Below, piece by piece: positions 1,434 through 33,059 of a DNA stretch of 43,864 nucleotides. The DNA is taken from assembly GCA_964413645.1 (NCBI GenBank), contig CAYPSA010000008.1, positions 1-43,864 on the forward strand, read 5' to 3'. This stretch comes from an uncultured Gammaproteobacteria bacterium (GTDB taxonomy: Bacteria > Patescibacteriota > Microgenomatia > UBA1406 > HO2-37-13b). The notes under the pieces were generated by a model. That model saw only the letters and a program-made list of their open reading frames with translations, made no database searches and was not told where the DNA came from. Each line of letters begins with the position of its first letter. The stretch's first letter is position 1. A program made the position numbers and the translations under genes.

Positions 1434-3071
1434 TTACGGTTCGTATATATAAAACATCTCTTCCGTTCCAGCAGTTATCTTTTGAATTTTTGACATATCT
1501 ATATTTTCCTTATTATTAAAATGTTCCGGATACCCAATGTATGAAATTCCTGCTTGCGGATGATCTACGTTAAATTGAAAATCATACTTATCAAATTCCC
1601 ACACCTGTCCAAATCCATATTCATCAGGTGGCGACAGTTTTGCCTGTCTCTGATATTGTTCTGGTGGATATTTTGAATAAAATAACATAAAAATGTATGG
1701 CTCTCCGTTTCGAGTAGTAATATTGAATTTTTCAAATTTGTCGTAATTCGTATTTACGTATTGGGCCAGCTCCTTGTATCCACATTGCCATGAACGAGAT
1801 GTAACTGCTTTATATGGATAATGGAAAAAGTAAAAATCCCAAGTCATGTAATTAAAGAATCCAAATGCAGAAAAAAGGAGTAAAGCCGCCCAGATTCTAT
1901 AACGGTGAGTAAAGGAACTTACGAGTGAAACCGCGCCATATGACGCTATTATCAGCAAGGGAACCACCATAAATATTGATCGTGTTGCTGAATACTCAAA
2001 AAACGATAATGAAGCAGCTACGGGTGCAATGAGGAGTAAAAAGAGCAAAAAAGGGGCATTTTTCGGTCTCTTTTTTATCAGGAAATATATTCCAACAAAG
2101 ACTAATGCGTATTCCGCCAGAGTGATAAGCGATATTCCCGGATGTCCAAAACGATAATTCGTATCGCCGTGAATTACTAAAAATTCTGGTGAAAAATATT
2201 TGATATATTCATGAGGTAAATCAAGAGCTGCTTGGGTAACGGGGTTATATAAAATCGGCAAATCTTTTTCAATAAGCTTCTGTTTAATTGAAAGCTTAAA
2301 TCCCCCGTCATTAAAAAAAATCAGATTCTTGAGACGTGTTGGATTATATAAAACATCGGTAAATGAAAATAAAATGAGTGGTAATGCAGCGATTGCAAAA
2401 AGCAGTCCTATGCGAGTGTACAGAGTTTTACGAGCTCCGGGGGCTCGGAATCTAACTCTCATCATAAGCGTAACACCCAAAAACACCACCATTCCCGCAA
2501 CAATCGGACGACTTAAATGATACGCGAATAAACTCATAAATGAGGTAGCTGCAAACCAATATACATATTTATTTTCGTTGTTTTTCAAAAATTTCAGAAG
2601 AAATGTAGCGCTTATCACCAATAAAAACACAGCAAGTGGCGCTTCATGAGCATGTCGCGCAGTTATTTGAATCCATGGAGAAACCGCAGTTAGAAAGGCT
2701 GCTAAAAGCGAAATTCGCTCATCTTCAAATAATTCTTTCGTTAAGAAATACACTGCAAGTGGAAACAGAATTCCAATAAGCATTGCAAGTGCCCGTGTTG
2801 ATGTTTCTGTAAGTCCCATTGCACCAATAAAGGGGACTGAAAGATATGAATATAAGGGGAGTTTATAATCTCCGAATGACTTGAGTCGTAATGGAAGCAT
2901 TACCCCATACTCATCTTTTCCAGTTTTAAGAAGACTATACGCGTTGTATCCAAATGCAGCTTCATCAGCATTTAAACACACGGGGAGCGATTTTACTTTT
3001 ACTACATGTAAAAGTACCGTTAAAAGAATTATTCCAAGTAATAGTAATTTCGTTTTCATACAAAAATTCAA
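1434..3071 (-). CDS. GT-C fold glycosyltransferase (ArnT/PMT-like)
   Basis: NADEAAFGYNAYSLLKTGKDEYG first-loop motif, many TM helices, soluble C-terminal domain. Confidence 0.8.
   Translation of the reverse strand: MNFCMKTKLLLLGIILLTVLLHVVKVKSLPVCLNADEAAFGYNAYSLLKTGKDEYGVMLPLRLKSFGDYKLPLYSYLSVPFIGAMGLTETSTRALAMLIGILFPLAVYFLTKELFEDERISLLAAFLTAVSPWIQITARHAHEAPLAVFLLVISATFLLKFLKNNENKYVYWFAATSFMSLFAYHLSRPIVAGMVVFLGVTLMMRVRFRAPGARKTLYTRIGLLFAIAALPLILFSFTDVLYNPTRLKNLIFFNDGGFKLSIKQKLIEKDLPILYNPVTQAALDLPHEYIKYFSPEFLVIHGDTNYRFGHPGISLITLAEYALVFVGIYFLIKKRPKNAPFLLFLLLIAPVAASLSFFEYSATRSIFMVVPLLIIASYGAVSLVSSFTHRYRIWAALLLFSAFGFFNYMTWDFYFFHYPYKAVTSRSWQCGYKELAQYVNTNYDKFEKFNITTRNGEPYIFMLFYSKYPPEQYQRQAKLSPPDEYGFGQVWEFDKYDFQFNVDHPQAGISYIGYPEHFNNKENIDMSKIQKITAGTEEMFYIYEP
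2428..2450. repeat. REP-like family B copy within the GT-C coding sequence
   Basis: TTACGAGCTCCGGGGGCTCGGAA, translated as FRAPGARK in the host protein. Confidence 0.8.
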
Positions 3072-3083
3072 CCTCTTAGGTTG
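3069..3083. repeat. REP-like palindrome family C (CAACCT-nnn-AGGTTG)
   Basis: Copies at 3069, 34340, 34367 (loop CTT) and 38422 (loop GGA). Confidence 0.7.
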
Positions 3084-3090
3084 AACGTGC

Positions 3091-3921
3091 CTAGCTCAGC
3101 CCGCAGGTTGCCGCCACGGCCTTAAAAAATCCTTTCACCAAATTCCAATTTCCGGTCATTATAGATTTTACCAATACAAATGGCAACTGGAGTATGTGAG
3201 AAGGTTTCTGTGAACCGCTCGCATTTTTCCATGTACATAAAAACTGGTTCCTATACGAAATCACTTCTCGAAAATCATCCTTATAATATTTTCCAATTGT
3301 GGAAGCATGATGATGCTCTACCAAAATCCCCGGATCAAAAATCACTTCCCATCCGTGTTTCTTTGCCCTTAAAGAGAGATCGACATCTTCCCAGTAAAAA
3401 GGGGAATATGCACTATCAAATCCGTTAAGCTTTACAAAATACTCTTTGCGAATAATACACGTCCCGCCCTCCGCCCAACCGGTTGGTCCCGGCATAAGGT
3501 CGCATGCTTGCTCATGCATAATAAATCCATTCTTAAAAAACACGTTATTTTTTCCTACCGTTTGTCCATCTTCTTCAATCTGAGCAAAACTTACTGCGAA
3601 TAATTTTTCACTTTCCTCAAAACGCTTTACGGCTTTTTTATACGAATCGTCTTTTAAAAACACATCTGAATTTAACAAAAACAATAGGTCACCTGAGGCT
3701 TCTTTTGCTCCTCGATTAACAGAAAGCGCAAACCCCATATTTTTTTCATTAACCACCAACTTTACATCGGTGTATTTTTCAAATATATCATCAATAGATT
3801 CTTCTGGAAAATCATTTACTACAATAATTTCACACCCTTTAAGATGCTTATAATTATTTTCAAAACTTTTTTTCAAAAGTTCTTTATTTTTATAAACGGG
3901 AATGATTACTGAAATTTTCAT
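3091..3921 (-). CDS. GT2 glycosyltransferase (WbbL/RfbF-like); start moved from 3975 to MKISVII
   Basis: ISVIIPVY, IIVVND, NMGFALSVNRG, LNSD, YWEDVDL; the upstream ORF extension is repeat-derived. Confidence 0.88.
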   Translation of the reverse strand: MKISVIIPVYKNKELLKKSFENNYKHLKGCEIIVVNDFPEESIDDIFEKYTDVKLVVNEKNMGFALSVNRGAKEASGDLLFLLNSDVFLKDDSYKKAVKRFEESEKLFAVSFAQIEEDGQTVGKNNVFFKNGFIMHEQACDLMPGPTGWAEGGTCIIRKEYFVKLNGFDSAYSPFYWEDVDLSLRAKKHGWEVIFDPGILVEHHHASTIGKYYKDDFREVISYRNQFLCTWKNASGSQKPSHILQLPFVLVKSIMTGNWNLVKGFFKAVAATCGLS

Positions 3922-3926
3922 ATGCA

Positions 3927-3973
3927 TGTCATCCTGAATTATTAATGTCATCCCGAATTTATTTCGGGATCTC
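3927..3973 (+). repeat. REP-like family A (TGTCA...GATCT): truncated plus full unit
   Basis: TGTCATCCTGAAT followed by TGTCATCCCGAATTTATTTCGGGATCTC hairpin. Confidence 0.75.
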
Positions 3974-3975
3974 AA

Positions 3976-5043
3976 TCACAACTTAAAATATTCTTCGACT
4001 TTTCTTTTAAATACGCCACTAGAAAAGTTTTTCTCTCCATACTCCTTGCCCGCAGCAGATACCCCTTGCAGAGCAAGGCTTGCAGAGTTCACTTCCGCTG
4101 TCCTGCTAATTAACTCTTCAATCGTATCATACAAAAATCCTGTTTTTCCATTTTCAATTGTTTCTTTGGGTCCACCTGAATTATGTGCAAATGTTATACA
4201 TCCAGAAATCATCGCTTCAAGCACCGACATTCCCAAATGCTCTGTTGCTTCCGGATGCTCTGTCAAGTCCGCACCCAACCCGGCAGCATGCCAATAAAAT
4301 AGGGAAGTCTTGTAATGCTGTAACCATTCTGAATATGAAGCGTTTTTTACCAAAACAATATTCTTGTTTTTCTGAGCCAATAATTTCACTTCTTCAAAAT
4401 ATTCTTCATCTTCTTTTTTTACTGACCCCACTAGTACTAATTTAAAATCCGCAAATTCTGAGTGACGTGATTGCAGAGAGTTAAACGCCTCAACTAATAA
4501 ATGCTGATTTTTTGCATGCAAATGTCTAAAAAATCTTCCGACTGAAAGAATAACTTTTTCCTTTTTTTCAATGGGGGAGTACGAATCGAAAATTGCATCT
4601 TCAATAAATGGGTGCAGAACTCCCGTCTTCTTCCCTACCCATTTGGAAATGTAACCGGCAGTGAATTCTGAATTTGCAAAAAAGTCCCACCCTCTCCACT
4701 TTACTTTATTTAATAGAGACCTCGCATAAAGTGATTTTTGTGGATACATGCAAAACACATAATTCTTTTTAGCTTTTGGAATAAAATAACTTCCATCGGT
4801 TACATAGAGCAATACATCATACCCTTCCCCTTTTCGCGCTGCTTTTTCAACGGTAAAAGAATTTACGTCGATCTTTAGTTTGTCAGAAAGATGTGAGAGG
4901 ATTGCATTATCATGCCAAAACAGTGCAACCGCGTATCCATGTTCTTCAAATACTTTTCCTATTGAAAGGATATGCTTCTCTCCTCCTCCAAAAACATCTA
5001 AATAAGGATCAACGATGAGAATTTTTTTCATGATACTTTTCAT
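3976..5043 (-). CDS. GT4 glycosyltransferase
   Basis: N-terminal DPYLDVFGGGEK; C-terminal EHLGMSVLEAMISG and HNSGGPKETI. Confidence 0.9.
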   Translation of the reverse strand: MKSIMKKILIVDPYLDVFGGGEKHILSIGKVFEEHGYAVALFWHDNAILSHLSDKLKIDVNSFTVEKAARKGEGYDVLLYVTDGSYFIPKAKKNYVFCMYPQKSLYARSLLNKVKWRGWDFFANSEFTAGYISKWVGKKTGVLHPFIEDAIFDSYSPIEKKEKVILSVGRFFRHLHAKNQHLLVEAFNSLQSRHSEFADFKLVLVGSVKKEDEEYFEEVKLLAQKNKNIVLVKNASYSEWLQHYKTSLFYWHAAGLGADLTEHPEATEHLGMSVLEAMISGCITFAHNSGGPKETIENGKTGFLYDTIEELISRTAEVNSASLALQGVSAAGKEYGEKNFSSGVFKRKVEEYFKL

Positions 5044-5869
5044 ACAAAAATAAATAGGTTATTGTTTTTGAAAATGCCTGATAAATCGATTCAATAATTC
5101 CAAGTGTTCCATCTCTATAACCTTGCCACTTGAATAAACGGCGGTATAATTCTCCTAAAAACTTTCTAAAAAATGTAGAAGTCGACACAGGCTTATACGC
5201 TTTAAATAACAGATCAGATTCAATATCTTCGTATACAATTGTTTTTGCAACCATCGTTTCCAAATTCTTGTGGAAATAATGGAGCAATGGCTCTTTGAGT
5301 AATCCCGCTTCGCCTTCAATAATAGGAGTCGAGTGAATCGCTTGTGGCCACTCTTTAAATGCGCTTTTTTTAATTAATCTTGTTTGATAATCAGTTGTTG
5401 AATTCCAACCACCATGCTGCAACCACTTTTTCCCCGCAAAAATATTTTTACGTCGAAGCTTGTAATGAGTAATGTCGCTTGCCTTGAGTGCAGTCGAAGG
5501 GTCACCCTGAGCAACACCTTTGTCATTCTGAGCGGAGCGAAGAATCTCGGACCTGTCACCCTGAGCAGAGCGAAGGGTCTCAGCTATCTCCTCCGCCAAC
5601 TTTTCTGTTATCCGTTCGTCTACATCTAATAAAAACACCCATTCTGTTTTTACTTTTTCAACTCCAAAATTTCGTGCAGGCTCTACGTAGCGTGAATAAG
5701 GAAATGAAAGTACGACAACCTTTTCTTTTTTAGCCAAAGCGACCGTTTTGTCCGTACTCTCAGTATCCACAACTAGAATCTCGTCAGATAGTAGACGCGC
5801 ACTTTTTATACATTCAACAATCTCCTCTTGCTCGTTATATGCTTGAATTAATACGGTTATTTTGTTCAT
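5009..5869 (-). CDS. GT2 glycosyltransferase (WaaE/LgtF-like) with an in-frame repeat insertion
   Basis: VVDTESTDKT, ARNFG, LDVDER, RKNIF.GKKW..HGGW..DYQTRL. Confidence 0.88.
   Translation of the reverse strand: MNKITVLIQAYNEQEEIVECIKSARLLSDEILVVDTESTDKTVALAKKEKVVVLSFPYSRYVEPARNFGVEKVKTEWVFLLDVDERITEKLAEEIAETLRSAQGDRSEILRSAQNDKGVAQGDPSTALKASDITHYKLRRKNIFAGKKWLQHGGWNSTTDYQTRLIKKSAFKEWPQAIHSTPIIEGEAGLLKEPLLHYFHKNLETMVAKTIVYEDIESDLLFKAYKPVSTSTFFRKFLGELYRRLFKWQGYRDGTLGIIESIYQAFSKTITYLFLYEKYHEKNSHR
5484..5581 (+). repeat. REP-like family A tandem cluster inserted in frame in a GT2
   Basis: TGTCATTCTGAGCGGAGCGAAGAATCTC (5521-5548), TGTCACCCTGAGCAGAGCGAAGGGTCTC (5554-5581), plus a degenerate unit. 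Confidence 0.85.
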
Positions 5870-5918
5870 ACAATCTCATTGATAATGTCGCTATCTGTTA
5901 GTATTATAATACTATTAC

Positions 5919-7463
5919 ATGAACAAAATACGAAACAAAGCGCAAATTGGCACCTTTCTTTCTATTTGTCTCATTATCTTCGGAATAATTCTAAGCGCCT
6001 GGTTTTTTCTATTTAACGACCTTGTTTTTCATACCGATGTAGCACGTGATTTCCTATTATTCGAAAACATTGTGCATGAAAAACCGTTCACATTAATTGG
6101 GCCACGTGCCGGAGGAATTCCAGGCGTCTTTCACGGTCCATTGTGGCTATATGTCAATATCCCCGCATTCATTATTGGTCAAGGAAACCCGGTCGTAGTT
6201 GGATGGGGCTGGCTCATATTTTTTATCGGAAGTATTTATGGTATGTGGTATGTTTCAAAAAAACTTTTCGGGCATGAAGTTGCTTTACTTAGTACTGTTC
6301 TTTATACTTTTGTTACGGCCGGTTTGGTAAAAGCTTCATTCAATCCATCTGGCGCTGTCTACTTGAGTCCTCTGTTTTTTTATTTTCTATACCTCTATCT
6401 TAAAGAGTCAAATAAATTTCACCTGGCACTAACATACTTTATCCTGGGTCTTATTATTCAATTTCAGATGGCATTTGGAGTTCCTATTGGACTTATTACG
6501 ACCGCAATTGTACTTTTCCACATTGTAAAGAGAAAGGAATTCATACATATATTTTTCATGAGTACCATTTTGATCCCACTTTCATCGTACATATTATTCG
6601 AATTGAAACATGACTTTTTGCAAATTCGTTCAGTATTGAATTTTCTTACCGGAGTTGAAAACGCAGGAAAAGTCCATACTACAACTTCAAAGTTTTTAAT
6701 CGACAGATTTCAAGGATTTACCCGCAGTGGCATATCATTTATAGGACATAACATACCAATCCTTATCCTTGCAACGTGGTCAACAATAATTGCTGGCTTA
6801 ATCAGTAGAAAAAAATCAACAAACGACAAGCTTATTTACTTCCTTATTATCAGTCTGTATTTGGGTTTCTGGGCATCCACACTCGTGTTTAAGGGTGTTA
6901 TTTGGAGCTACTATTACTGGCCACTTACACCGTTACTAATTATATTCATCGCCTCAACATATAAATATATTGACAAACGAATTTTCTTCGTAGCTTACGC
7001 TCTACTTCTTGGCTTCAATATTTTCAATGTTACAAAAGAAATTTACCAAGCCTCATCGTATATAGGAACCGGAAGAACTGGCGGAACGTGGCAATATTAT
7101 TACAAACCCGCACAAGATATTTTTGCATCGGCACCATCAGAATTTGGCTATTTTATTTATACGGCTGATCAATTTGGCTATTCGTCTCGCTATGCAATGA
7201 ACTACGCCCAAAAGGCAAATGAAAACAAAATTGCCAGACCTTTCCAAAAGAGTGGAAAAACATACCTTCTAACATTCCCTGCACATGACCATCCATACAC
7301 AAATGAAAAATGGTGGAAAGCAGGTCAGGTAAAAATCGACCGTAAACCAAATAAAGTATTCAAATACGATAGAAACTTTTATATTGAAGAGTACGATCTT
7401 ACAGAAGAAGAAGTTCAAGTTACTCCTGATCCAAATTTACTACACACAATTATTTTTCGCTAG
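5919..7463 (+). CDS. GT-C fold glycosyltransferase (ArnT-like, DxxRD..GP subfamily)
   Basis: FHTDVARD, TLIGP, FHGPLWLY; multi-TM. Confidence 0.75.
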   Translation: MNKIRNKAQIGTFLSICLIIFGIILSAWFFLFNDLVFHTDVARDFLLFENIVHEKPFTLIGPRAGGIPGVFHGPLWLYVNIPAFIIGQGNPVVVGWGWLIFFIGSIYGMWYVSKKLFGHEVALLSTVLYTFVTAGLVKASFNPSGAVYLSPLFFYFLYLYLKESNKFHLALTYFILGLIIQFQMAFGVPIGLITTAIVLFHIVKRKEFIHIFFMSTILIPLSSYILFELKHDFLQIRSVLNFLTGVENAGKVHTTTSKFLIDRFQGFTRSGISFIGHNIPILILATWSTIIAGLISRKKSTNDKLIYFLIISLYLGFWASTLVFKGVIWSYYYWPLTPLLIIFIASTYKYIDKRIFFVAYALLLGFNIFNVTKEIYQASSYIGTGRTGGTWQYYYKPAQDIFASAPSEFGYFIYTADQFGYSSRYAMNYAQKANENKIARPFQKSGKTYLLTFPAHDHPYTNEKWWKAGQVKIDRKPNKVFKYDRNFYIEEYDLTEEEVQVTPDPNLLHTIIFR

Positions 7464-8952
7464 TTTTCTGCCATTGTTCAATTGTGGTTTTATTGGGCAT
7501 TTCATATCGTGAAACCATTGTGAATCCTTCAGGAATATTACTCTTTCTCCATTCTTCTACTCGAAAGCTATATTCATCATGATCGATAATCATAATACAA
7601 GAATCATTCACAAAATTATCAAGAGGTACTTTATATCCGCTTAAATTACTGTAGTGAAATAAATAATTATATGTATGGGGAACAACGGGCGGCGTGTAAA
7701 TGCGCGCACAAAAATCTTCTTTTCCCACTATTGAATATACTTTCTGAGCAGTTGCAACATCAACTCGTAGACCAACTTGTGGTACCCGATTATTATTGAA
7801 TTCATAATGCACTTTTGCTCCAACTAATATCACATAAAAAATAATCATTCCCATAATAAGCCTCTTCGATTTTTCAAGATTTAGAGTATGTAGTAAAAGT
7901 AGCATTGGAAAAAATAGTAAGTACTGAATTCCTTCCAAATAATAATCCCAGAAAAAATTGTTTCGGTACATGAGTGAGAATAAAAAGATAAGGGCGATCA
8001 TACTTACAAAGAATCTAAATATTCTTTGATTAAATGAAGACAATGTTTTGAATCTACAAATCAAAAGTGAAAGCATTATCAATATCACCCCAAAAACTAA
8101 TAAGTTATTATTCTCATAAAAGATTTCCTTAAAATAACTTAAAAATAAAAGTGCCCGATCATGAGCAATCCCTCCGAAATTCTGTGTATGTGTTTTTGAC
8201 GGATTATTAAAAAATGCAATAATCCCTTTTATTTGTGAAAAATTATGTTTGATTTCAAAAAGAATTCTGAAAGTAAAAGGCAGTATAAGACCTGAAAGTA
8301 GCGCGAAGATTGAGCTTCGACTACGATACAATTTTCTCAATTCTGCAAACAATAAACTTGCTACAAAAAATGATGGAATAATAAATATTCCAAATGGCAT
8401 TTCTGACTCAAAAATTAAACTCAAAGAAAGAGCGGTTAAAAATACAAATTTGGTTTTCCCGGTTTTAAACAACTCATAGGCACTATAAATAAAGAGCAGA
8501 ACAAACGGCGGGGCTAGAATATTGTTCCCGGCAAAAATAGAGATTCCCACAAAATATGGCGATACAGCTACAACTAGCAAAAAGAGAATAGCAATATAAT
8601 TTCCAAATTCCCGCTTCAAGAAAGCTGTAAATAAAATTGTAGTAATAAGTGTCATAATCAGCACTCCCCAATAAAATCCACTTGGGCTTCCTCCAAACAC
8701 CGCATAATTACCCGCCAAAAAGTAATACCACCAGACTCCATGATTCACCCCCGCGATTCCCGTAGTTGGCCCTATGAATGTAGGGTTTTTAAATCGAACA
8801 ATTTCTTCAGCCTTTAAAAAGTCTCTCCCCTGATCATACGTATACGGTACCGTTTGATAATAGATTGGCTTTGCTCTAAAATAAACAAACAGAAGGAACA
8901 AAATTATGTACGGCAACCACACTTTCAAGCAATGAAGTTTATAATTAGTCAT
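7450..8952 (-). CDS. GT-C fold glycosyltransferase (ArnT-like, DQGRD subfamily)
   Basis: YTYDQGRD, TFIGP, HGVWWYY; multi-TM. Confidence 0.75.
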   Translation of the reverse strand: MTNYKLHCLKVWLPYIILFLLFVYFRAKPIYYQTVPYTYDQGRDFLKAEEIVRFKNPTFIGPTTGIAGVNHGVWWYYFLAGNYAVFGGSPSGFYWGVLIMTLITTILFTAFLKREFGNYIAILFLLVVAVSPYFVGISIFAGNNILAPPFVLLFIYSAYELFKTGKTKFVFLTALSLSLIFESEMPFGIFIIPSFFVASLLFAELRKLYRSRSSIFALLSGLILPFTFRILFEIKHNFSQIKGIIAFFNNPSKTHTQNFGGIAHDRALLFLSYFKEIFYENNNLLVFGVILIMLSLLICRFKTLSSFNQRIFRFFVSMIALIFLFSLMYRNNFFWDYYLEGIQYLLFFPMLLLLHTLNLEKSKRLIMGMIIFYVILVGAKVHYEFNNNRVPQVGLRVDVATAQKVYSIVGKEDFCARIYTPPVVPHTYNYLFHYSNLSGYKVPLDNFVNDSCIMIIDHDEYSFRVEEWRKSNIPEGFTMVSRYEMPNKTTIEQWQKTSEK

Positions 8953-10410: not shown

Positions 10411-10411
10411 T

Positions 10412-18405: not shown

Positions 18406-18554
18406 TATCAATAAAAGTTCTCCAACTTCAAGAATTGACAATCCCAAACGCGATAAAAACTATGGGGAAGGCTCCTAACCTAATTTATTAAGCCACCTGT
18501 CTCATCTGACTGGAATGCCGGTTCTGAGCAGATCTCTCAATAGCACTTAGCTCC

Positions 18555-22628: not shown

Positions 22629-24268
22629 AATGTATTATTAATACCGATGCTAAATAAAAACGCAATTGCAGCCAGTGTCAATATATTTCCCAACTTTTCA
22701 ATTTGCGTTTGTTCATAAGTCACTGTCAGTTTTGATCCTTCAGCAATCTCCAATATTGGTCTTCCAAAACTATCAAATTTTGTTGGTATCACTTCCTTTT
22801 TATTAACCATAATCTTCCAGTATGGAAAATAGTGAATATTCAATTCCGCTCGAAGCGGATCCTTTTCAAACTGCCCTTCACTATATGGTACTGTATTTTG
22901 ATCTTCAAAGCTTCTCCAAAACTCATAATCTGCCGTTTTAGGCAAATACTCAGGAATCTTGTATGCAACTGAATTTCGAATGTAATTATTAGAAATATAC
23001 ATACTTTCATAAAGTGTGTTATTTACCATTTGTCCTTTATAAAGGCTCGAAATGTTTACCATAAGCCCAATACTCAGTACAAATAGTATGAATGCCCAAG
23101 TCTTTGGAGAAATAATTGTAAATTTTTCGCGAAGATAATTAGCTCCATACGCACCTAAGTATGCAAGTCCAAATACCCCAAAAACCAAAAACCTCCAAGG
23201 AAATTGAAACAGCGACAAAATTGGATATAAGATTTTCCAAACAAATGCCGATTGATACAATATTAAAAAGAGTGATAGACCGGTGAGCAATGCGATAAAG
23301 ACCGAAATTTTAGCATTCACATTATGTACAAAATATGCGTGCATAGAGTTTCGTCTTCTAAAAAGTGTCACTAATAGTGCCCCGCCTCCTACAAACCCAA
23401 ATATCCATAACATCTTTCCCAGCGCAAATTGCATTCCATCACTTACGCATCCAGGAACGCTTCCCCCAAATCCCCATGTGCCTACCCACAATTGTTTTAC
23501 ACACAAAAAATGATCTGCATAATTGGTCATTGCCGCAACATAAGTCGCATGGGTCAGGTTCGATTCTAAAAGCGCTGGAACCAAAAAATACGCTCCCGCA
23601 AGTACCCCAAGTACCAGAGAAAGAACGTTTCGTTTTTTATGCTTCAATAATCCAATAAATATCACCACTAACACTCCCGCTAAAAGCGACATAATATTAT
23701 GAACCGTAAGTAAGAATGAGAGCGTTAATGTTGTCATCACAAAAACTTTCTTAGAACTCCCTTGCGCATTTCGCATTAGCAAATATAGTGTTATTGGAAA
23801 CAATGCTAAAAACCACATTTCTGCCAAATTTCCTCGAACAAAAATTTCCAGCGGAATAATACTTGACGTAACGTAAAGAGTTGCGCCCAGCAGAGCTGAA
23901 GCTTCCTCAAATTGCTCTTTCAAAAATAGATACATTCCCACAAATCCAATGATCAGTGCTAATAAAAATGAGGCTTTTAACGCTCCTATTGTTGTCAGGC
24001 CAAGTAAAGAGAGAATGCTGCTTACCCAATACGCAAAGGGTGCGTAAAAATTAAATACCGGATACCCCATACCATATGAAAAGTCCGGGGCCATTCGAGG
24101 TGGAATCTGCAAGTTCTGCAAATTTACCGTAAATTGTTCAATTCGCGCTGCTTGTGTTTGATCGTGAAATTCAAACATGTTACGAGTTGTAGGTAATAGT
24201 TGGGCTCCAAGCACTAAAATCAAAATAGAAAGAATTATCCCAAAGAATAACTTTTGTTCAAATTTCAT
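22598..24268 (-). CDS. PTPS-related membrane protein (GT-C/YfhO-like)
   Basis: FHDQTQAAR, GMGYPVFNFYAP, VRGNLAE, FQFPWRF, HYFPYWKI. Confidence 0.78.
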   Translation of the reverse strand: MKFEQKLFFGIILSILILVLGAQLLPTTRNMFEFHDQTQAARIEQFTVNLQNLQIPPRMAPDFSYGMGYPVFNFYAPFAYWVSSILSLLGLTTIGALKASFLLALIIGFVGMYLFLKEQFEEASALLGATLYVTSSIIPLEIFVRGNLAEMWFLALFPITLYLLMRNAQGSSKKVFVMTTLTLSFLLTVHNIMSLLAGVLVVIFIGLLKHKKRNVLSLVLGVLAGAYFLVPALLESNLTHATYVAAMTNYADHFLCVKQLWVGTWGFGGSVPGCVSDGMQFALGKMLWIFGFVGGGALLVTLFRRRNSMHAYFVHNVNAKISVFIALLTGLSLFLILYQSAFVWKILYPILSLFQFPWRFLVFGVFGLAYLGAYGANYLREKFTIISPKTWAFILFVLSIGLMVNISSLYKGQMVNNTLYESMYISNNYIRNSVAYKIPEYLPKTADYEFWRSFEDQNTVPYSEGQFEKDPLRAELNIHYFPYWKIMVNKKEVIPTKFDSFGRPILEIAEGSKLTVTYEQTQIEKLGNILTLAAIAFLFSIGINNTLWTRIQNIKN

Positions 24269-24270
24269 AC

Positions 24271-25773
24271 TTAGGGTTGTAGCTTAAAGAAATAGATCGC
24301 GGATTTGTTACCTGGTTTTTCGAATTTTTTTATCAATTTAATTGGCCAATGTTGTGGAAATTCAGATCGGTGACCAAATACTGCATACACATCTTCCTTT
24401 TCCAATAGCGACTGGGCTTCAAATAATTCAGCCTCCCCCAAAGGCCATTCCCCTTTAATTCCCATATTATCAGAAGGGTAAATAAATGCATCAAGCACGT
24501 CTCCGGCCATACCAAAATCACCTTCGGCCAAAAACGTAATTCTCTTTCCCGAATCGTTGTCGCGCGCATATTGGACAATTTCTTGTGCTCCCCAGCCTGC
24601 TGGCCATCCTTCTAAATATTGTCCCCGGTCAACCCCCGGAAACGGTGTTTTTGCAGGGTTAAATAATAGTGAATAGTTAAAGTAGCTAACCGAAAGTACG
24701 ATGACAGCTATAAACGCCACGAGCTTTTTTGTAGTTTTAATTTGCGCAAGTGCATATGAAGCAGGTATAAGGAATAATGTTCCTAGGAAAATGATGTATC
24801 GAGGAAATAATACTTTTGAAACAAATGCTACTAAGATTGTCGGGAAAAGAATGGCGCATAACAAGAATAATCCATACGTATTCTTACGTTTCAATAAATG
24901 AGCAATCCCCGCAACTCCCAGCAACGGAACTACGTATGCCATTTCAGAAAAAATGTAATATGGAATATTTACAATATTTTCTGTAAAGTATCTGAACGGA
25001 CTCTCCATGAGCTCCGGAAGTGTTACGATGAACGTGTTATTTTTTTGTGAAACAAATTGGAAAAATGGCGACAGTCGTTGCACGTTGTAAACGATTAACG
25101 CGAGGAGTGTTCCGAAGCCAAACAGAACTGCAAAATTCGCAATTCTCTTAAAACTCCATTTCTTGGCTGTCACCACTGCTCCGAATCCAATCAGCATAAA
25201 TAGTCGCACCGATGACTTGGCGAGCAATCCTAAACCAGAGATCAGTCCGAACAAAAGAGCAACATCATAGCGGAGCGTATTAAAGAGTACAACGCTCAAT
25301 AAAACGATCCAAATAAAGAATCCATTTACTGCGCTATCAACCAACGCCATACGGTCATAAAACAGAAAATAAGGAGTTATTACATATAAAAATGCTCCTA
25401 TAAAAGCTGCTCGTTTTCCAAACAAGTAACGAATCAATAAAAAGAGCCCCGTAAGAGCGAAGAGTCCGCTTGCAGCCGCAAAGAGTCTTCCTGCCATAAG
25501 CGCATCGGTTGGAAACAGCTTCAAAAAAGGAATCGTTCCCCACGTTTGCAACGGCTGTTTTCCATCCGTCAGCGATATAAAGCGCCATGCAGCGTCATGC
25601 CAGGCAACTTTTGCCCAATGAATGTAAATTGCTTCATCGGAGAATATAGGAAATTTGGTCAAATTAACCGTTCGGGTTATTACGTAGCCAATCAGGAGTA
25701 CCCCCGCGGTCAAAAAATCATTCTTCGTAAATCTTTTTTTAATATCGGCTATTGTATTCCAAATATCGAACAT
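24271..25773 (-). CDS. GT-C fold glycosyltransferase (ArnT/PMT-like)
   Basis: FSDEAIYIHWAK, DGKQPL, DRMALVDS. Confidence 0.8.
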   Translation of the reverse strand: MFDIWNTIADIKKRFTKNDFLTAGVLLIGYVITRTVNLTKFPIFSDEAIYIHWAKVAWHDAAWRFISLTDGKQPLQTWGTIPFLKLFPTDALMAGRLFAAASGLFALTGLFLLIRYLFGKRAAFIGAFLYVITPYFLFYDRMALVDSAVNGFFIWIVLLSVVLFNTLRYDVALLFGLISGLGLLAKSSVRLFMLIGFGAVVTAKKWSFKRIANFAVLFGFGTLLALIVYNVQRLSPFFQFVSQKNNTFIVTLPELMESPFRYFTENIVNIPYYIFSEMAYVVPLLGVAGIAHLLKRKNTYGLFLLCAILFPTILVAFVSKVLFPRYIIFLGTLFLIPASYALAQIKTTKKLVAFIAVIVLSVSYFNYSLLFNPAKTPFPGVDRGQYLEGWPAGWGAQEIVQYARDNDSGKRITFLAEGDFGMAGDVLDAFIYPSDNMGIKGEWPLGEAELFEAQSLLEKEDVYAVFGHRSEFPQHWPIKLIKKFEKPGNKSAIYFFKLQP

Positions 25774-25787
25774 AAATGTATTATATA

Positions 25788-27200
25788 CTAATTATTCTTA
25801 TACAAAACAAATCCATCCTTTTTCACAACCGGCTTCCACAGTTCTGACGTTAATTTAAATGAAGTATCTTGGGGTAATACCAAACAATCGGCACCATCAA
25901 TCAATTCTTTATTTGGACTTTTGTCGTACCGATACACAACCGGTTGATCGGCATAAAACCTAAATGCTGGGGAACCTCCATACCTAAACGTCGAGGAGAT
26001 CTGCACATTTGCAGCATTAATTACATCGTAGAATTTCTGTTCTTCATTACTCGCCACAACCGTTACGCTTTTACACTCTTTTTTAGCAACCAATGCAACA
26101 GCTGTTAACGCTCCCGGTTCTTCTTTTTGCGTTTTTACAACATACGACTTATTTCCAATAATTCCGGCAATTAGCGCTCCAATAAGAGCGATGTAGACCG
26201 TACGCTGTGAGATTTTAAGATGTTTAGCCAAATCCGCAAATGCCACCCCTACACTCATTCCTAAAAATGGAATGATCGGGAACATGTACCAATTCAATTT
26301 TGTTTGGGGAATTGAAATTACGATGCTGTATAGCAAAAAGAGTGGAATAAAAAGCAGTTCAAATCGCTTCTTCTTTAAAAATATATATACAATGTAGAGA
26401 GTAGAGAGAATAATCGCGACTAAAAAAACATGGTAATAACTAAACAATAATTTCGGATAAAAAAAGAGCCCACCGTAATGCAATTCCACTGGTCGAACAA
26501 CGCGAGAAATTAAATGATCGTAAAAATTTTCTTGAATAAATAGTTGTCCAAATTTAAGGTAAGCAAAAATAAACCACGCAATACTCACTCCTACCGAGAG
26601 CAATAATGTCTTTGAGTATGTAAACAGAGGCTTAACCGAGCGAGTAGAAAATAACTCTTCCGCCAATACCACAAAAATTGGAAACAGTCCCAAGAACGAT
26701 TTTGACATAACCCCAATGAACAAAAATAGGGCGGTATAAAGAATATTCTTTTTGGAAAAATAATAAAATCCCAACCACCCGAGCACTAAAAACATGTCGG
26801 TATTCAGCGATGTGAGTCGATTTAAAAATGGCGGCGATACAAGTAAAAAAGCAGCAGTTCCTAAAAAATACAGTTCATAATTCTTTTCAAACTTTTCTTT
26901 AAATATTTTAAAAATAAAATAAAGTACTCCAAGCCCTGCTAAAAATGAAGGAAGCCGAGCTAACATCTCAACCGACCCCAAACCCGTACTCATAAAAAGA
27001 CCCGACAGGAGTGAAACGAGTGGTGGTTTTTCAAGCCAAGGCTGACCGTTCCACATGCCAAAAGGGGTGTTTGACGCGACCATTTCTTTACCAACTTGAG
27101 CATAAATCGCCTCATCCCAGTCGTACAAATATGTTTGGGAGAGATTGATAAGTGACACAAGAAGTACAAATCCCAAGAGCAACACAAGAAGTTTTCTCAT
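25788..27200 (-). CDS. GT-C fold glycosyltransferase (ArnT/GT39-like)
   Basis: YDWDEAIY, WLEKPP, ARLPS. Confidence 0.82.
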   Translation of the reverse strand: MRKLLVLLLGFVLLVSLINLSQTYLYDWDEAIYAQVGKEMVASNTPFGMWNGQPWLEKPPLVSLLSGLFMSTGLGSVEMLARLPSFLAGLGVLYFIFKIFKEKFEKNYELYFLGTAAFLLVSPPFLNRLTSLNTDMFLVLGWLGFYYFSKKNILYTALFLFIGVMSKSFLGLFPIFVVLAEELFSTRSVKPLFTYSKTLLLSVGVSIAWFIFAYLKFGQLFIQENFYDHLISRVVRPVELHYGGLFFYPKLLFSYYHVFLVAIILSTLYIVYIFLKKKRFELLFIPLFLLYSIVISIPQTKLNWYMFPIIPFLGMSVGVAFADLAKHLKISQRTVYIALIGALIAGIIGNKSYVVKTQKEEPGALTAVALVAKKECKSVTVVASNEEQKFYDVINAANVQISSTFRYGGSPAFRFYADQPVVYRYDKSPNKELIDGADCLVLPQDTSFKLTSELWKPVVKKDGFVLYKNN

Positions 27201-27946
27201 TTTTTATACTTTCCCGTCAAGGAATAATATTTTATTCGAGCCAAGTCCTTAAGCGTTTCAATTGTATCTTTTATAAACTTTACATTTTTCGTTTCAACGT
27301 GTTTCCACCGAACAGGAACTTCTGCAATTCCATACCCCAAAAGACGAGCTATGTACAAAAATTCCAAATCAAATCCAGCAGATACAGATGAGCCATCGAC
27401 CGTGTGACTCTTTGCAAAAACTACCAATCGAGAAATTATCTCATTCGCCTCTTTACGTCGAAACAATTTAAATCCGCATTGTGTATCTCGCAAACCTCCC
27501 AATCCCAAAAACATATCTCTAACAAGAATAAACCCAACCGATTGTACTTTTCTCAAAAATGGCGCTCCTGCTCGCGCGCTTTTACGCGATCCAATTACAA
27601 TAGGAAACTCATTACTCGCTTTTTCCATCAACTGCACTTCTTCTTCAAGTGGAGTAGCCAAATCGATATCGGCAAACAGCACATAATCTCCTCTTGCTGC
27701 TTCAATTCCCGAAATCACTGCCTCACCTTTGCCTTTATGAGCGTTCTGGAGGAGTTTAAACTTTCGAAAATGAGGTAAATATTCTTTCTTAATAATTGCA
27801 GCAGAATCATCGTTTGATCCGTCATCAACAATAATAACTTCCTTAAAATAATCTCGTCCTCCGGTATAGTTTCCTATTCTATCAAGTACCCCTTTTTGAA
27901 TATTGGCCTCTTCGTTATAGCAAGGAATTATTAGTGAAATACTCAT
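27197..27946 (-). CDS. Polyprenyl-phosphate glycosyltransferase (ALG5/DPM1-like GT2)
   Basis: VDDGSND, GKGEAV, ADIDLATP, DTQCGFKLF, FDLEFL, EVPVRW. Confidence 0.85.
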   Translation of the reverse strand: MSISLIIPCYNEEANIQKGVLDRIGNYTGGRDYFKEVIIVDDGSNDDSAAIIKKEYLPHFRKFKLLQNAHKGKGEAVISGIEAARGDYVLFADIDLATPLEEEVQLMEKASNEFPIVIGSRKSARAGAPFLRKVQSVGFILVRDMFLGLGGLRDTQCGFKLFRRKEANEIISRLVVFAKSHTVDGSSVSAGFDLEFLYIARLLGYGIAEVPVRWKHVETKNVKFIKDTIETLKDLARIKYYSLTGKYKK

Positions 27947-27948
27947 AC

Positions 27949-29427
27949 TTATTCTCGAACTAATTTGTAAATTTTTACCCCTTCAACTTCCCACATTGTA
28001 TCAATTTTTGCAGTACCGAACATCGAAATGTTCCAAGAAGGAGAATTCACAACCACACAGGGCTCTTCGCCACACAATACAAACATTTGATCTGTTATTT
28101 CTAACTTTCTTCGATCAGCAGGTGGCTGTCCTCCTAAATTCAAAAAATAAACATAGTTATCTTCTGTAAAGTAAATCGGCCAGGTGGCAATATTGTATGG
28201 TTTGTTTCCTGTTTTTGTAAGCATAAACTGAGCAACGCGTTTTGCATGATTAATTTGACCATTTCCCGGTTCTACAAAAAAAGGTAATTGCAGATTCCAA
28301 TATAAATATGCTGCAAGAAGGGCTATAAGTGCTAGCTGCCCTATTCTTTTAAACCGTGCCAGAAGCGAAAGCATGTATGCTGCGACTAACGAAAAACTCA
28401 GATAAATTGGCGTGTAATAATGTGCGTGTCGGGGAGTTTGCAAAAAAGCAAAAAATAGTAAAAATGAAGCTACGGCAAGCGAATTCAAATGAATAAATCG
28501 AGGAACCTTTTGCCATCTGCTTATTACTAGATAAAGTACCAATATTGTCACACTTATGGCAAGTGCGGCACTTACGCTTACTTCATAATGAAAAACTGTA
28601 TTAACGAAAGCATTATTTACATTGAGAAACCGTGTAGAAAAAAGTTCGCGGGCAACATCTTTTTGCTCACTAAAAAGTTTTAGAAAGCTTGAACTATTTA
28701 TAAAATCATGTCGTAAGTCAAACAATATGAGTGGGCTAATTGAGGCAATGAATGAAAGTGCTGGAGCCACGATCATTGCTTTGTATGACGACAAGACCTT
28801 TCCTCGTTTCTCCCACATAAAAAGTACGTACCACACTACGATTGCAGGAGCAATTAAGACAGCCAAATAATGGAACTGCATAGAAAGGCCAAAAAAGAAT
28901 CCGAATAATGCCCCAAACAGAATTGTAGGTTTTTGCATTAGCTTATATAAAAAGAACAACGAAAAGAATGCTGAAAAGTGCAATAAATTTGGATTCCATG
29001 AAAAACGAGCAAGCTCGATCTGCACAAATGAGAAAAAGGACAAAATGGAGAATAACAAAGCCACACCCAGGCTAATTTCCCTCTTGATCACTGCGTAACT
29101 TGCCGCTATACCAAGTAATGAGTAAAACGCGACTGCGTACGCAAGTCCGACCGGATTAAATCCAAACAGGGGTAGAAATGGTGCAACTAAATAATAGTAT
29201 GCTGGACCTAAAAAAACCTGACCAATACTGGTAGGAGCTCCAATAAGTGGAAAATGGGTAAAAGTAACTATGTCTTTAATTATTAATGCATCACGACCCT
29301 GATCTGACAAAAATACCGTAAATTGTTGTAATCTAAAAAAACGCAGGAACGCACCAGTCAAAAGTAAACTCGTAAAAACCTTATTTTTTGTTACAATGGT
29401 TCTTATCGTATCTATGAAACGGCTCAT
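27949..29427 (-). CDS. GT-C fold glycosyltransferase (DQGRD subfamily)
   Basis: LSDQGRD, LIGAP, GPAYYY, RFSWNPN. Confidence 0.8.
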   Translation of the reverse strand: MSRFIDTIRTIVTKNKVFTSLLLTGAFLRFFRLQQFTVFLSDQGRDALIIKDIVTFTHFPLIGAPTSIGQVFLGPAYYYLVAPFLPLFGFNPVGLAYAVAFYSLLGIAASYAVIKREISLGVALLFSILSFFSFVQIELARFSWNPNLLHFSAFFSLFFLYKLMQKPTILFGALFGFFFGLSMQFHYLAVLIAPAIVVWYVLFMWEKRGKVLSSYKAMIVAPALSFIASISPLILFDLRHDFINSSSFLKLFSEQKDVARELFSTRFLNVNNAFVNTVFHYEVSVSAALAISVTILVLYLVISRWQKVPRFIHLNSLAVASFLLFFAFLQTPRHAHYYTPIYLSFSLVAAYMLSLLARFKRIGQLALIALLAAYLYWNLQLPFFVEPGNGQINHAKRVAQFMLTKTGNKPYNIATWPIYFTEDNYVYFLNLGGQPPADRRKLEITDQMFVLCGEEPCVVVNSPSWNISMFGTAKIDTMWEVEGVKIYKLVRE

Positions 29428-30499
29428 ATACCCTTATTTTACTCTACTCTATTTAGTTTTAGGAAGTACGCTTTTGGCGTGGGTACCATTTATGCGTAAT
29501 TTCCTTACCGTTTATGCTAATTATGACGGTCCTTTATATATTGTAGTCGCCAAAACGTTTTATAACCCGTCTGCGATTCAAAGTCTACAAGTGGGACTTA
29601 ATTTAACCGCTGAATATTTTGCGGCACATTTACCCTTGTACCCGGCATTTATCGCCCTAACAGGACCAATAATTGGCTATTTGCGAGCAATGATCTTTGT
29701 CAACGTTGCTTTTACCGTATCACTTACCTTTTTACTATATTACGTTGTTAAAGATCTAAATTTATCTAAAAAACCCCTTCTTTTAACCGGCGTTTTTTTG
29801 TTTTTACCTCGATTTCTTGTTGTCCGATCCATTGGTTCACCTGAAAGCTTGTTTATGTTGCTTATTTTAGGCTCACTGTACTTATTTGAAAAAAATAGAC
29901 TCGTTTTTTCAGGAATTCTAGGAGCCCTTGCTGTAGCAACAAAATTGCCAGGAATATTACTCTTCGTTGCGTATGGACTGGTGTATATTGAACGATACCT
30001 GAGTAATAAAGAATTTTCATGGAAGTCGCTTTACACACTTATTATTCCACTGGGACTTTTTGGAGTATTTGGAATCTATGCAGTCCAATATAACGACTTT
30101 TTAGCCTATTTTCACACGAACGCAGTCGTTCCACTCGTTTCGCCCTATGCCGTCTTTAATAATGCTGCAAAATGGGTAGGAACTATTTGGCTAGAAGACG
30201 TTATTTTTTACTTCGGAATCTATGCAGCGACAATCGTTGTTCTACGACACAGCATACATCGAAGTTTCTTCTATTTTGCTGTCACCTTCTTTATTGCCAC
30301 TATCTTCGTAGAACATCGTGATATCGCACGATACAGTCTTCCATTATGGCCCCTAGCCGCAATAGCTGGTGAAAAGATAATTACATCAAAAAAGTTTTTA
30401 CTAGCATCCCTCATCATTCTCCCAGCAGTTTACTTATACGCATGGAATTTCATTGGAAACAACGTAGCACCCATCGCAGATTGGAAAGCATTCCTATAA
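29414..30499 (+). CDS. GT-C membrane glycosyltransferase, PIG-V/mannosyltransferase-like; start probably 29414
   Basis: YDGPLYIVVAK..Y, AHLPLYP, PESLF, RYSL. Confidence 0.62.
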   Translation: MKRLIYPYFTLLYLVLGSTLLAWVPFMRNFLTVYANYDGPLYIVVAKTFYNPSAIQSLQVGLNLTAEYFAAHLPLYPAFIALTGPIIGYLRAMIFVNVAFTVSLTFLLYYVVKDLNLSKKPLLLTGVFLFLPRFLVVRSIGSPESLFMLLILGSLYLFEKNRLVFSGILGALAVATKLPGILLFVAYGLVYIERYLSNKEFSWKSLYTLIIPLGLFGVFGIYAVQYNDFLAYFHTNAVVPLVSPYAVFNNAAKWVGTIWLEDVIFYFGIYAATIVVLRHSIHRSFFYFAVTFFIATIFVEHRDIARYSLPLWPLAAIAGEKIITSKKFLLASLIILPAVYLYAWNFIGNNVAPIADWKAFL

Positions 30500-33056: not shown

Positions 33057-33059
33057 CCC

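Follow-up and report, generated by a model that had tools for sequence, protein, structure and literature searches.

A conserved ~29-kb block in an uncultured Microgenomates bacterium encodes thirteen GT-C-type proteins and a candidate polyprenyl-phosphate sugar synthase

The lipomannan/lipoarabinomannan (LM/LAM) and arabinogalactan of mycobacteria, like the N-glycans and glycosylphosphatidylinositol (GPI) anchors of the endoplasmic reticulum (ER), are started on a lipid carrier and then extended, on the extracytoplasmic or lumenal side of the membrane, by glycosyltransferases of fold class C (GT-C). To date, the logic of one lipid-sugar synthase feeding many GT-Cs is known mainly from these mycobacterial and ER pathways. 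Bacterial three-component systems show the same logic in single-step form (PMC11127046). In this report, we analyze a 43,864-nt stretch of DNA, contig CAYPSA010000008.1 (the window, whose numbering is used throughout), and in particular the block of ~29 kb at 1434-30499. Our main finding is that this block encodes thirteen polytopic proteins with GT-C support next to a putative polyprenyl-phosphate sugar synthase, a Wzx flippase and five cytoplasmic glycosyltransferases of families GT2 and GT4, in a gene order kept over deep divergence. Membership in a family or fold, conservation of catalytic-type residues and conservation of gene order are all direct observations. The block is most likely a vertically inherited, ~29-kb cell-envelope glycan locus, and we propose, with a probability of about 0.6, that it encodes a hybrid two-stage pathway building a cell-envelope glycan, in which the GT-Cs would be fed by lipid-linked donors. 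In this it would be closer to mycobacterial or ER assembly than to the usual bacterial pathways.

The window is chromosomal DNA of an uncultured, ultra-small bacterium of the Candidate Phyla Radiation (CPR), a Roizmanbacteria-like member of the Microgenomates. A Microgenomates-group metagenome-assembled genome encodes proteins 87% identical to those of the window, and the corresponding proteins in many Candidatus Roizmanbacteria and Woesebacteria assemblies are 35-55% identical; the identical sequence is present on contigs assembled from run SRR8893623. The DNA is AT-rich (GC 36-42%) and tightly packed, with no intergenic gap of more than 60 nt between 1434 and 15100. Polytopic GT-C-like proteins account for 13 of the 24 open reading frames (ORFs) of at least 100 aa in the 29 kb, leaving out a 155-aa shadow ORF at 14996-15463; such a density, together with its recurrence in dozens of species, is far beyond chance.

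Combining the ORF listing with Kyte-Doolittle hydropathy gave exactly 13 polytopic ORFs in the block, each with 7-11 hydrophobic segments, where GT-Cs typically have 8-13 TM helices; the only other many-helix membrane protein within the span is the Wzx flippase. They form four paralogue sets and four singletons, and are designated below by their start coordinates:

1434-3071, minus strand: GT-C of set A (DE...TG.DE type), 545 aa, 8 hydrophobic segments, PMT_2 32.6 bits; D36 E37 and D53 E54 at least 90% conserved in 19 orthologues
5919-7463, plus strand: GT-C of set B (D..RD type), 514 aa, paralogue of 7450; D40, R43 and D44 conserved; no Pfam match, PMT_2 included
7450-8952, minus strand: GT-C of set B (DQGRD), 500 aa, PMT_2 34.1 bits; D40, R43 and D44 conserved in 19 orthologues
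8932-10410, plus strand: GT-C of set C (WDEAWY), ~492 aa, PMT_2 68.9 bits, PMT 41.4 bits; WDEAWY conserved in 26 orthologues
10412-11518, plus strand: GT-C of MptA/MptB-family type, 368 aa, 8 hydrophobic segments, precomputed match to PF26314 (MptA_B_family)
12822-14525, plus strand: member of a GT-C family without a Pfam model ('GTC_X'), 567 aa, assigned by AlphaFold2 (AF2) model and Foldseek
15326-17014, plus strand: GT-C of set P (PTPS_related), 562 aa, PTPS_related 39.9 bits; D36 and H40 conserved
18555-20237, minus strand: GT-C of set A, 560 aa, DUF2079 and PMT_2 below threshold; E38, R39, D40 and D54 conserved
22598-24268, minus strand: GT-C of set P (PTPS_related), 556 aa, PTPS_related 31.8 bits; H35 and D36 conserved
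24271-25773, minus strand: GT-C singleton (SDEAIY), 500 aa, PMT_2 32.1 bits; D46, E47 and D60 conserved in 33 orthologues
25788-27200, minus strand: GT-C of set C (DWDEAIY), 470 aa, PMT_2 28.9 bits; D27, D29 and E30 conserved
27949-29427, minus strand: GT-C of set B (DQGRD), 492 aa, PMT_2 27.1 bits; D42, R45 and D46 conserved in 3 orthologues
29414-30499, plus strand: GPI-mannosyltransferase-I/GT87-like GT-C, ~361 aa, assigned by AF2, Foldseek and family profile

Two of these genes belong to longer ORFs, named 8854 and 29396 after their first possible codons: the TTG start at 8854 is likely an over-extension of a gene that starts at the ATG at 8932, and ORF 29396 probably starts at 29414. Six proteins (1434, 7450, 8854, 24271, 25788 and 27949) score 27.1-68.9 bits against PMT_2 (PF13231), above the Pfam cutoff of 26.1 bits, and two (15326 and 22598) pass the PTPS_related cutoff of 26.4 bits. 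Below the PMT_2 cutoff stand 15326 (22.9 bits) and 18555 (19 bits), and the orthologue of the latter in locus L003 (76% identity) passes with 26.6 bits. Paralogy is visible in the motifs, which were read from the translations: YDQGRDF in 7450, SDQGRDA in 27949 and TDVARDF in 5919; SWDEAWY in 8854 and DWDEAIY in 25788; NADEA..TGKDEYG in 1434 and HDERD..TGHDLFG in 18555. Within sets, blastp gave E-values from 1e-17 to 3e-5 (5919-7450 1e-17; 27949-5919 7e-11; 8854-25788 1e-9; 1434-18555 2e-6; 15326-22598 3e-5), and profile-profile comparison of orthologue alignments with hhalign gave 99.2-100% (99.9% for 5919 against 7450, 99.8% for 18555 against 1434), with 90-98% for several links between sets.

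In all 13 GT-Cs an acidic residue lies within ~25 residues past the first transmembrane segment (TM1), and at least 90% of their orthologues keep it; the alignments comprise 3 to 99 sequences, with slender support for 27949 (3) and 25788 (5). The N-termini before TM1 are rich in K and R in 12 of the 13 (read directly), so that by the positive-inside rule the first loop would lie outside the cell. A preliminary description of this DNA, made from its letters and ORF translations, had claimed thirteen polytopic proteins with acidic first-loop motifs, falling into DQGRD-type (three), WDEA.Y-type (two), DE..TG.D-type (two) and PTPS-related (two) sets; count, motifs and sets all proved correct. Its reading of the singletons fared less evenly: the MptB-like one does carry the precomputed PF26314 match, and its 'PIG-V-like' one, 29396, is by profile nearer to GPI mannosyltransferase I, that is, to the PIG-M type.

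In public gene calls, three GT-C genes begin too far downstream, at 9076 (for 8854), 15428 (for 15326) and 29492 (for 29396), which gives 444 instead of ~492 aa, 528 instead of 562 aa and 335 instead of ~361 aa. TM1 is lost in all three and the first-loop motif is also lost in the 8854 and 15326 genes; the segments cut off are conserved in orthologues. Such late starts may hide GT-C features in CPR annotations.

Two proteins for which Pfam gave no match, 12822 and 29396, were assigned by fold, using AF2 models built from homologue alignments and compared with the PDB by Foldseek; they are counted as GT-Cs because the models are confident and their top Foldseek matches are all GT-C. For 12822-14525 there was no Pfam, NCBIfam or PDB sequence match, and its family profile returned nothing useful against the PDB. 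Its model (pLDDT 93.1, pTM 0.93) is a bundle of at least 11 helices, and the best Foldseek matches were AglB, PglB, DPY19, STT3, AftA, AftD and ArnT, with E-values down to 8e-7 and TM-scores of ~0.5. The family is large, with 1627 representative clusters at E <=1e-3 and 929 at <=1e-30 in a library of 1.84 billion proteins, and its named matches are almost all from CPR assemblies. D50 is invariant, a WWN(T/S)(V/I)QF motif lies at 376-382, and the invariant or near-invariant polar residues (D50, D85, K215, E287, Q372, W376, W377, N378 and E444) all fall at positions predicted, from the modelled topology, to face outward.

Membership of 12822 in the oligosaccharyltransferases (OSTs; STT3, AglB, PglB) was considered and rejected as an assignment, an OST role being kept as a possibility. 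It has no STT3 Pfam match and no PDB sequence match, and its WWN motif lies where a TM helix begins, ahead of the C-terminal domain (438-567); the WWDYG motif of PglB sits in the C-terminal soluble domain. At TM-scores of ~0.5, the modelled likeness to OSTs is that of GT-Cs in general. Some family members are fused to other proteins: P0240 with an MptA/B-like GT-C, and P0367 with Wzx plus a secreted domain, which suggests physical or functional coupling of the 12822 family with these partners. Moreover, ~15 of the 150 best family representatives (P0299 and P0320 among the fusions) have an N-terminal signal peptide and a conserved secreted domain of 400-600 aa, with a VTIVNPVRG..FW motif and a weak DUF3863/3lm3 match.

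The product of 29396 has itself no Pfam match, and only a below-threshold NCBIfam match (AZOBR_p60025). It has more than 1289 homologues in Patescibacteria, some with PF09594 (GT87) or PF13231 (PMT_2) matches, and its family profile matches GPI mannosyltransferase 1 chains at 3.4e-8. The model (pLDDT 91.7) is again a bundle of at least 11 helices, with STT3, ALG12, ALG9, ArnT, GPI mannosyltransferase I, ALG6, PimE and ALG3 as best Foldseek matches, and D38 (D44 in ORF numbering) is invariant. As for 10412, the PF26314 match appears in the precomputed tables, unmarked and with an E-value of at most 1e-5, for the protein and two orthologues. The local Pfam copy, in which PF26314 was either lacking or undetected, gave no match for 10412 or its L003 orthologue, and the 10412 family profile found no PDB chain and no profile-profile link to the other sets or to 29396. 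Its orthologues all keep D21, D98 and D127, and at least 90% of them keep D105. Overall, each of the thirteen is thus a predicted GT-C, by Pfam, precomputed Pfam, paralogy or fold.

To assess linkage, one genome per species was scanned with the 12822-family motif, yielding 79 loci (L-numbered) whose ORFs were called and each assigned to the best-matching window protein. The same gene order was found from 87% down to ~35% amino acid identity, across Roizmanbacteria, Woesebacteria and Microgenomates assemblies. It reads CAAX protease, GT-C(A1), GT2a, GT4a, GT2b, GT-C(B), GT-C(C1), GT-C(Mpt), GT2c and GT-C(X), then, in part of the loci, a 195-aa protein and GT-C(P1), followed by GT-C(A2), GT2d, Wzx, GT-C(P2), GT-C(S), GT-C(C2), synthase, GT-C(B3) and GT-C(87). 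Full 10-kb flanks around the 12822 orthologue are available in 34 loci, of which 32 have at least six GT-C-like ORFs within 10 kb (the median for the 34 is 8); a core of Mpt, GT2c, X, GT2d, Wzx, P2 and S is near-universal, each being present in 22-34 of the 34. The orthologues are therefore linked in the same order, not scattered. The right-hand end is the same in two Roizmanbacteria genomes (L086 and L087), where the synthase lies between two PMT_2 genes. A MacA/MacB-type exporter comes next after this end, with a GT4-UppP pair a few kb further along; in one of the two genomes, overlapping pieces place the block contiguously on a 1.23-Mb contig.

Other arrangements were also seen. A rearranged version (L057-L060, L067, L070, L074 and L077, several titled Woesebacteria) holds two or three synthase-like GT2s along with a UDP-glucose dehydrogenase and an epimerase/dehydratase, which hints at a uronic-acid-derived or pentose lipid-linked donor. 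A GT26 enzyme of the WecG/TagA/CpsF family (3e-38) recurs in five related loci including L065, L066 and L068 (20309-21112). GT26 enzymes of the WecG/TagA type act on undecaprenyl-PP-GlcNAc primers, and its presence by sequence match hints at a wall-polymer linkage unit. Several divergent neighbours stand head-to-head with zero or negative spacing (12821/12822, 8932-8952 and 29414-29427), as they do in relatives (10000/10001 in L003, 10001-10009 in L005); the GT2c/12822 junction is kept across species. With zero distance between divergent genes, promoters would have to lie within the neighbouring coding sequence.

The candidate for the enzyme that would make a lipid-linked donor lies within the block:

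27197-27946, minus strand: putative polyprenyl-phosphate sugar synthase (DPM1/ArnC/GtrB-type GT2), 249 aa, Glycos_transf_2 4.5e-23

Its DXD motif, read directly as FADIDL, is D93-x-D95. The best PDB matches were Pyrococcus DPMS (1.4e-14), ArnC (5.5e-12) and GtrB (1.7e-8), ahead of other GT2s, in keeping with the ALG5/DPM1-like label it had initially been given; the best NCBIfam matches, none of which comes near its equivalog cutoff, include ArnC, PgfS, PpgS and a haloarchaeal Dol-P-hexose transferase. On these matches it groups with the polyprenyl-phosphate glycosyltransferases, as orthologue of no named enzyme. There is no hydrophobic segment in its 249 aa, and hence none of the C-terminal TM helices of GtrB, ArnC and archaeal DPMS. 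Human-type DPM1 is likewise devoid of TM segments, and by analogy 27197-27946 resembles this enzyme or one that depends on a partner. Orthologues of 248-249 aa occupy the same position in L086 and L087. In NCBIfam and PDB searches the other four GT2s of the block were unlike polyprenyl-phosphate transferases, so that the count of one synthase holds for the window. Two of them had been candidates for the same role: 20234-21187, tried as a second GtrB-like synthase, gave a weak GT2 match, no NCBIfam match and GmaR as best PDB match, and 5009-5869 matched GmaR and SunS best.

The companion genes within the block are the following:

3091-3975, minus strand: cytoplasmic GT2 (GT2a), Glycos_transf_2 2e-20, generic with a weak rhamnosyltransferase-like match, no TM segment
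3976-5043, minus strand: cytoplasmic GT4 (GT4a), Glycos_transf_1 4e-24
5009-5869, minus strand: cytoplasmic GT2 (GT2b), Glycos_transf_2 3e-18, best PDB matches GmaR and SunS
11496-11990, plus strand: membrane-anchored protein with two LysM domains (LysM 1e-15) and one TM segment
11973-12821, minus strand: cytoplasmic GT2 (GT2c), rhamnosyltransferase-like, Glyco_tranf_2_3 2.5e-10, TIGR01556 1.7e-16 (below cutoff)
14512-15099, minus strand: conserved 195-aa single-TM protein, no family match
17092-18405, plus strand: soluble 437-aa protein, no TM segment, weak HTH-type and winged-helix/ArsR-like matches
20234-21187, minus strand: GT2 with one C-terminal hydrophobic segment (GT2d), 317 aa, Glycos_transf_2 9e-7
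21180-22628, minus strand: Wzx/MOP-family flippase, Polysacc_synt_3 1e-46

GT2c stands head-to-head with 12822 in 28 of the 34 loci, GT2d adjoins Wzx in at least 25, and the 195-aa protein adjoins the 15326 orthologue in many. The flippase has NCBIfam matches to MOP flippases and to an O-glycosylation flippase, both under cutoffs. The LysM protein was found only in the closest relatives; the 17092 protein has an orthologue only in the nearest one, L007, and is probably a recent insertion, not part of the conserved block.

Past the last GT-C, four further features were noted:

31376-34333, plus strand: MacA/MacB-type exporter (HlyD-like protein, ABC ATPase, MacB_PCD-FtsX permease), by Pfam
36495-37628, minus strand: GT4 (GT4b), Glycos_transf_1 1.5e-24, paired with UppP
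37629-38420, plus strand: UppP/BacA undecaprenyl-diphosphatase, BacA 1.4e-70
42283-43404, plus strand: LCP (LytR-CpsA-Psr) protein, LytR_cpsA_psr 1e-37

The exporter trio directly follows the last GT-C in three of three genomes (the window, L086 at 11167-14055 and L087 at 11149-14040) and may have a glycan-related substrate to export or process. The GT4-BacA pair is likewise conserved in L086 and L087. There is no LCP gene within 10 kb of the cluster end in either, so that, of the two genes said in the preliminary description to lie nearby, both are present by Pfam and the LCP gene is no conserved neighbour. The other companions it named are borne out as well: GT2s at 3091, 5009, 11973, 20234 and 27197, GT4s at 3976 and 36495, and Wzx by Pfam. 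It had recognised no Wzy or Wzz, and indeed no Pfam or NCBIfam match to Wzy_C/O-antigen ligase, Wzz or a priming phosphoglycosyl transferase was found among the window ORFs of at least 100 aa. These functions could be encoded in another part of the genome or be taken over by a GT-C; one of the GT-Cs, especially 12822-14525, may play a Wzy-, ligase- or OST-like role.

By analogy with described pathways, cytoplasmic GT2/GT4 enzymes, a MOP flippase, a polyprenyl-phosphate sugar synthase and many GT-Cs would together be the signature of a two-compartment pathway. In the first stage, we infer, the GT2 and GT4 enzymes (3091, 3976, 5009, 11973 and 20234) would build an oligosaccharide on undecaprenyl-(pyro)phosphate at the cytoplasmic face, and the flippase at 21180-22628 would carry this lipid-linked oligosaccharide across the membrane. 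In the second, to judge from family membership, 27197-27946 would load polyprenyl phosphate with a monosaccharide, and the 13 GT-Cs, drawing on lipid-linked donors, would lengthen, branch or transfer the glycan at the outer face of the membrane. Since every GT-C has a positional orthologue of its own in other species, each would perform a distinct, conserved and non-redundant step, and this argues for a single pathway rather than a pool of decorating enzymes that could stand in for one another. Conjectural in this proposal are the order of steps, a single product for all the enzymes, the identity of the donor sugar and that of the final acceptor, for which wall peptidoglycan, a lipid anchor and surface proteins are candidates. 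The preliminary description spoke of a candidate extracytoplasmic glycan assembly line resembling GPI, N-glycan or lipomannan assembly. GT-C support, the synthase and the linkage speak for this, while the oneness of the glycan is conjecture; the embedded Wzx and five cytoplasmic GT2/GT4 genes point to a hybrid rather than a purely GPI- or lipomannan-style pathway.

Several observations weigh against so unified a scheme. A single synthase for 13 GT-Cs implies either one shared sugar or other donors made elsewhere, and the window holds no priming phosphoglycosyl transferase or nucleotide-sugar genes. A search of the intergenic gaps and of the 50-200-aa ORFs gave no small multi-TM ORF that could be a GtrA- or ArnE/F-like flippase, and there was no GtrA match by Pfam. 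The genes are divided among about ten short transcription units on the two strands, so that their co-expression would be an assumption. The periphery varies: the 5919-type GT-C (B1) occurs in 8 of 34 loci, several loci have duplicates of the X family, and further families of polytopic proteins, a clear DUF2079 among them, are found in others. Some of the GT-Cs may accordingly decorate a product instead of belonging to an invariable line, and one branched glycan as the common target of all 13, as opposed to several acceptors, is itself conjecture. Finally, the GT-C status of 10412, for which the evidence is the precomputed Pfam match, is the weakest of the thirteen, and the 12822-family fusions come from metagenome gene calls alone.

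The same set of genes could instead comprise independent systems, of the three-component type or for protein O-glycosylation, that are co-located and share a pool of polyprenyl-phosphate sugar, each GT-C adding one sugar to a different acceptor such as pilins or other surface proteins, peptidoglycan or a teichoic-acid-like polymer. Most of the GT-Cs are indeed in PMT_2, a family that includes protein O-mannosyltransferases and ArnT; PgfS, which acts in streptococcal adhesin glycosylation, is among the closer NCBIfam matches of the donor synthase; the GmaR and SunS that two cytoplasmic GT2s match best modify proteins or peptides; and peripheral gene content differs between species. We nevertheless hold this to be rather unlikely, as positional GT-C orthologues kept in order at 35-55% identity fit fixed steps better, Wzx and five cytoplasmic glycosyltransferases interleaved with the GT-Cs imply a lipid-linked oligosaccharide intermediate, and the GtrA-like flippase such systems use was not found. 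At the other extreme, the polytopic proteins might be inactive (decayed paralogues, transporters or scaffolds), their clustering being without pathway meaning. This could explain the marginal or absent Pfam scores of several members, but it is very improbable given that all 13 reading frames are intact, that many polar residues besides the first-loop acids are at least 90% conserved, that two members without Pfam match model confidently as GT-C, and that gene order has been kept over deep divergence.

A further alternative gives the leading part to Wzx, in a repeat-unit pathway where 12822-14525 would be the likeliest polymerase, ligase or OST using a lipid-PP-oligosaccharide and the other GT-Cs would decorate the product. 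The role of polymerase is vacant, with no conventional Wzy in the window, and 12822 might fill it: its best Foldseek E-values are to the OSTs AglB, PglB and STT3, its relative P0367 is fused to Wzx, and its family has the invariant extracytoplasmic WWN motif and the conserved E287 in a long outer loop. However, its TM-scores to OSTs are no better than those to AftA, AftD and ArnT, which use polyprenyl-phosphate sugars, the family and motif objections raised above apply here too, and no Wzz was found; we judge this version distinctly unlikely. A bolder extension of the two-stage pathway fed by lipid-linked donors is that Microgenomates in general build their main envelope glycan by such an assembly line of a dozen or more dedicated GT-Cs, with the 12822 family, not described before, as the ligase, polymerase or OST that would join the Wzx-exported precursor to its acceptor. 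We put it forward tentatively, as possible yet doubtful. If true, it would be a bacterial counterpart of ER and mycobacterial glycan assembly encoded in one conserved block, and these episymbionts might use the product, as a surface structure, to make contact with their hosts.

Some features of the surroundings touch none of these questions. A search for RNA elements found none inside the block and only tRNAs outside it: tRNA-Ser (77-150) and tRNA-Cys (31246-31318) lie just beyond its two ends, and two more tRNA genes lie at 39503-39577 and 40681-40755, a tRNA-Ile (anticodon TAT) and a tRNA-Gly. The tRNA-Gly overlaps the proposed GTG start (40695) of a HAD hydrolase ORF, which must therefore start further downstream. 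A YafQ-like toxin ORF (1.5e-7) lies in the 41455-41977/41922-42278 area, with an upstream 86-aa ORF that could be its antitoxin and, downstream, a stand-alone methylguanine-methyltransferase DNA-binding domain protein. The 173-aa product of 34391-34912 has one TM segment, two copies of a cysteine-rich motif (C-x6-7-C-x3-C-x-C) and no family match. GC skew is negative in 20 of 21 2-kb windows irrespective of gene orientation (cumulative -2.0); the title of a paper on a Microgenomates genome reports strand composition disparity (PMC7143001).

A large share of bacterial diversity belongs to the CPR, or Patescibacteria, which live attached to other cells, yet their surface chemistry is almost unstudied. 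A literature search that did not cover subscription journals found no description of GT-C clusters in CPR; 29 glycosyltransferase genes have been counted in a Microgenomates genome (PMC7143001). A conserved locus for extracytoplasmic glycosyltransferases that occupies ~3% of a ~1-Mb genome would suggest a surface with a major, structured coat of glycan or glycoprotein. It also offers experimental handles, namely a small soluble candidate synthase, 13 enzymes with defined predicted catalytic residues and a modelled GT-C family, and it would extend the logic of one lipid-sugar synthase and many GT-Cs beyond actinobacteria and eukaryotes. PMT_2, PTPS_related, MptA-B and GT87-like GT-Cs, a DPM1/ArnC-type GT2 and Wzx are all parts of known kinds. 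The unusual points are the 13:1 ratio of GT-Cs to synthase, their gathering in one conserved block, the CPR lineage with ~1 Mb genomes, and a GT-C family without a Pfam model.

Each of the known systems is matched in part. With the Wzx/Wzy pathways for O-antigen, capsule or rhamnose-rich wall polysaccharide, the locus shares Wzx, cytoplasmic GT2 and GT4 enzymes, UppP and LCP nearby and, in some related loci, a WecG/TagA-type transferase; it differs in that neither Wzy nor Wzz nor a priming transferase could be recognised in the window, and in a ratio of GT-Cs to cytoplasmic glycosyltransferases of 13:5. Like the three-component systems (GtrA/GtrB/Gtr*, CsbB-GtcA-YfhO, GacI-GacL and ArnC-ArnE/F-ArnT), it combines a GtrB/ArnC-like GT2 with GT-Cs, but at 13 per synthase instead of 1:1, with no GtrA- or ArnE/F-like flippase found, with a synthase devoid of C-terminal TM helices, and with GT-Cs that are conserved orthologues and not variable serotype-converting genes. 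ER assembly (DPM1/ALG5, ALG3/9/12/6/8/10, PIG-M/V/B/Z, PMTs and STT3) likewise has a cytoplasmic stage, a flip and many GT-Cs, there lumenal and supplied with Dol-P-sugar; this likeness is one of fold and profile only, at 11-14% identity, as in the matches of 29396 to ALG12, ALG9, ALG3, ALG6, GPI mannosyltransferase I and STT3, and the context here is bacterial, with Wzx, UppP and LCP and no evidence for N-glycosylation sequons or a GPI anchor. The mycobacterial and corynebacterial LM-LAM/arabinogalactan system (Ppm1 with PimE, MptA-C, Emb and AftA-D) also has one synthase and many GT-Cs, which extend the glycan outside the membrane after cytoplasmic GT-A and GT-B steps, and individual proteins recall it: 10412 by its MptA_B_family match, 29396 by its PimE and GPI mannosyltransferase I matches, and 12822 by the AftA and AftD matches of its model. 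Unlike in mycobacteria, the GT-Cs here are mostly PMT_2 and PTPS_related proteins and not orthologues of GT87, GT53 or GT85 enzymes, identity being too low for orthology; the phylum is CPR, with no evidence here of a phosphatidylinositol anchor or decaprenyl-P-arabinose synthesis, and all the genes, including Wzx, lie in one contiguous conserved block.

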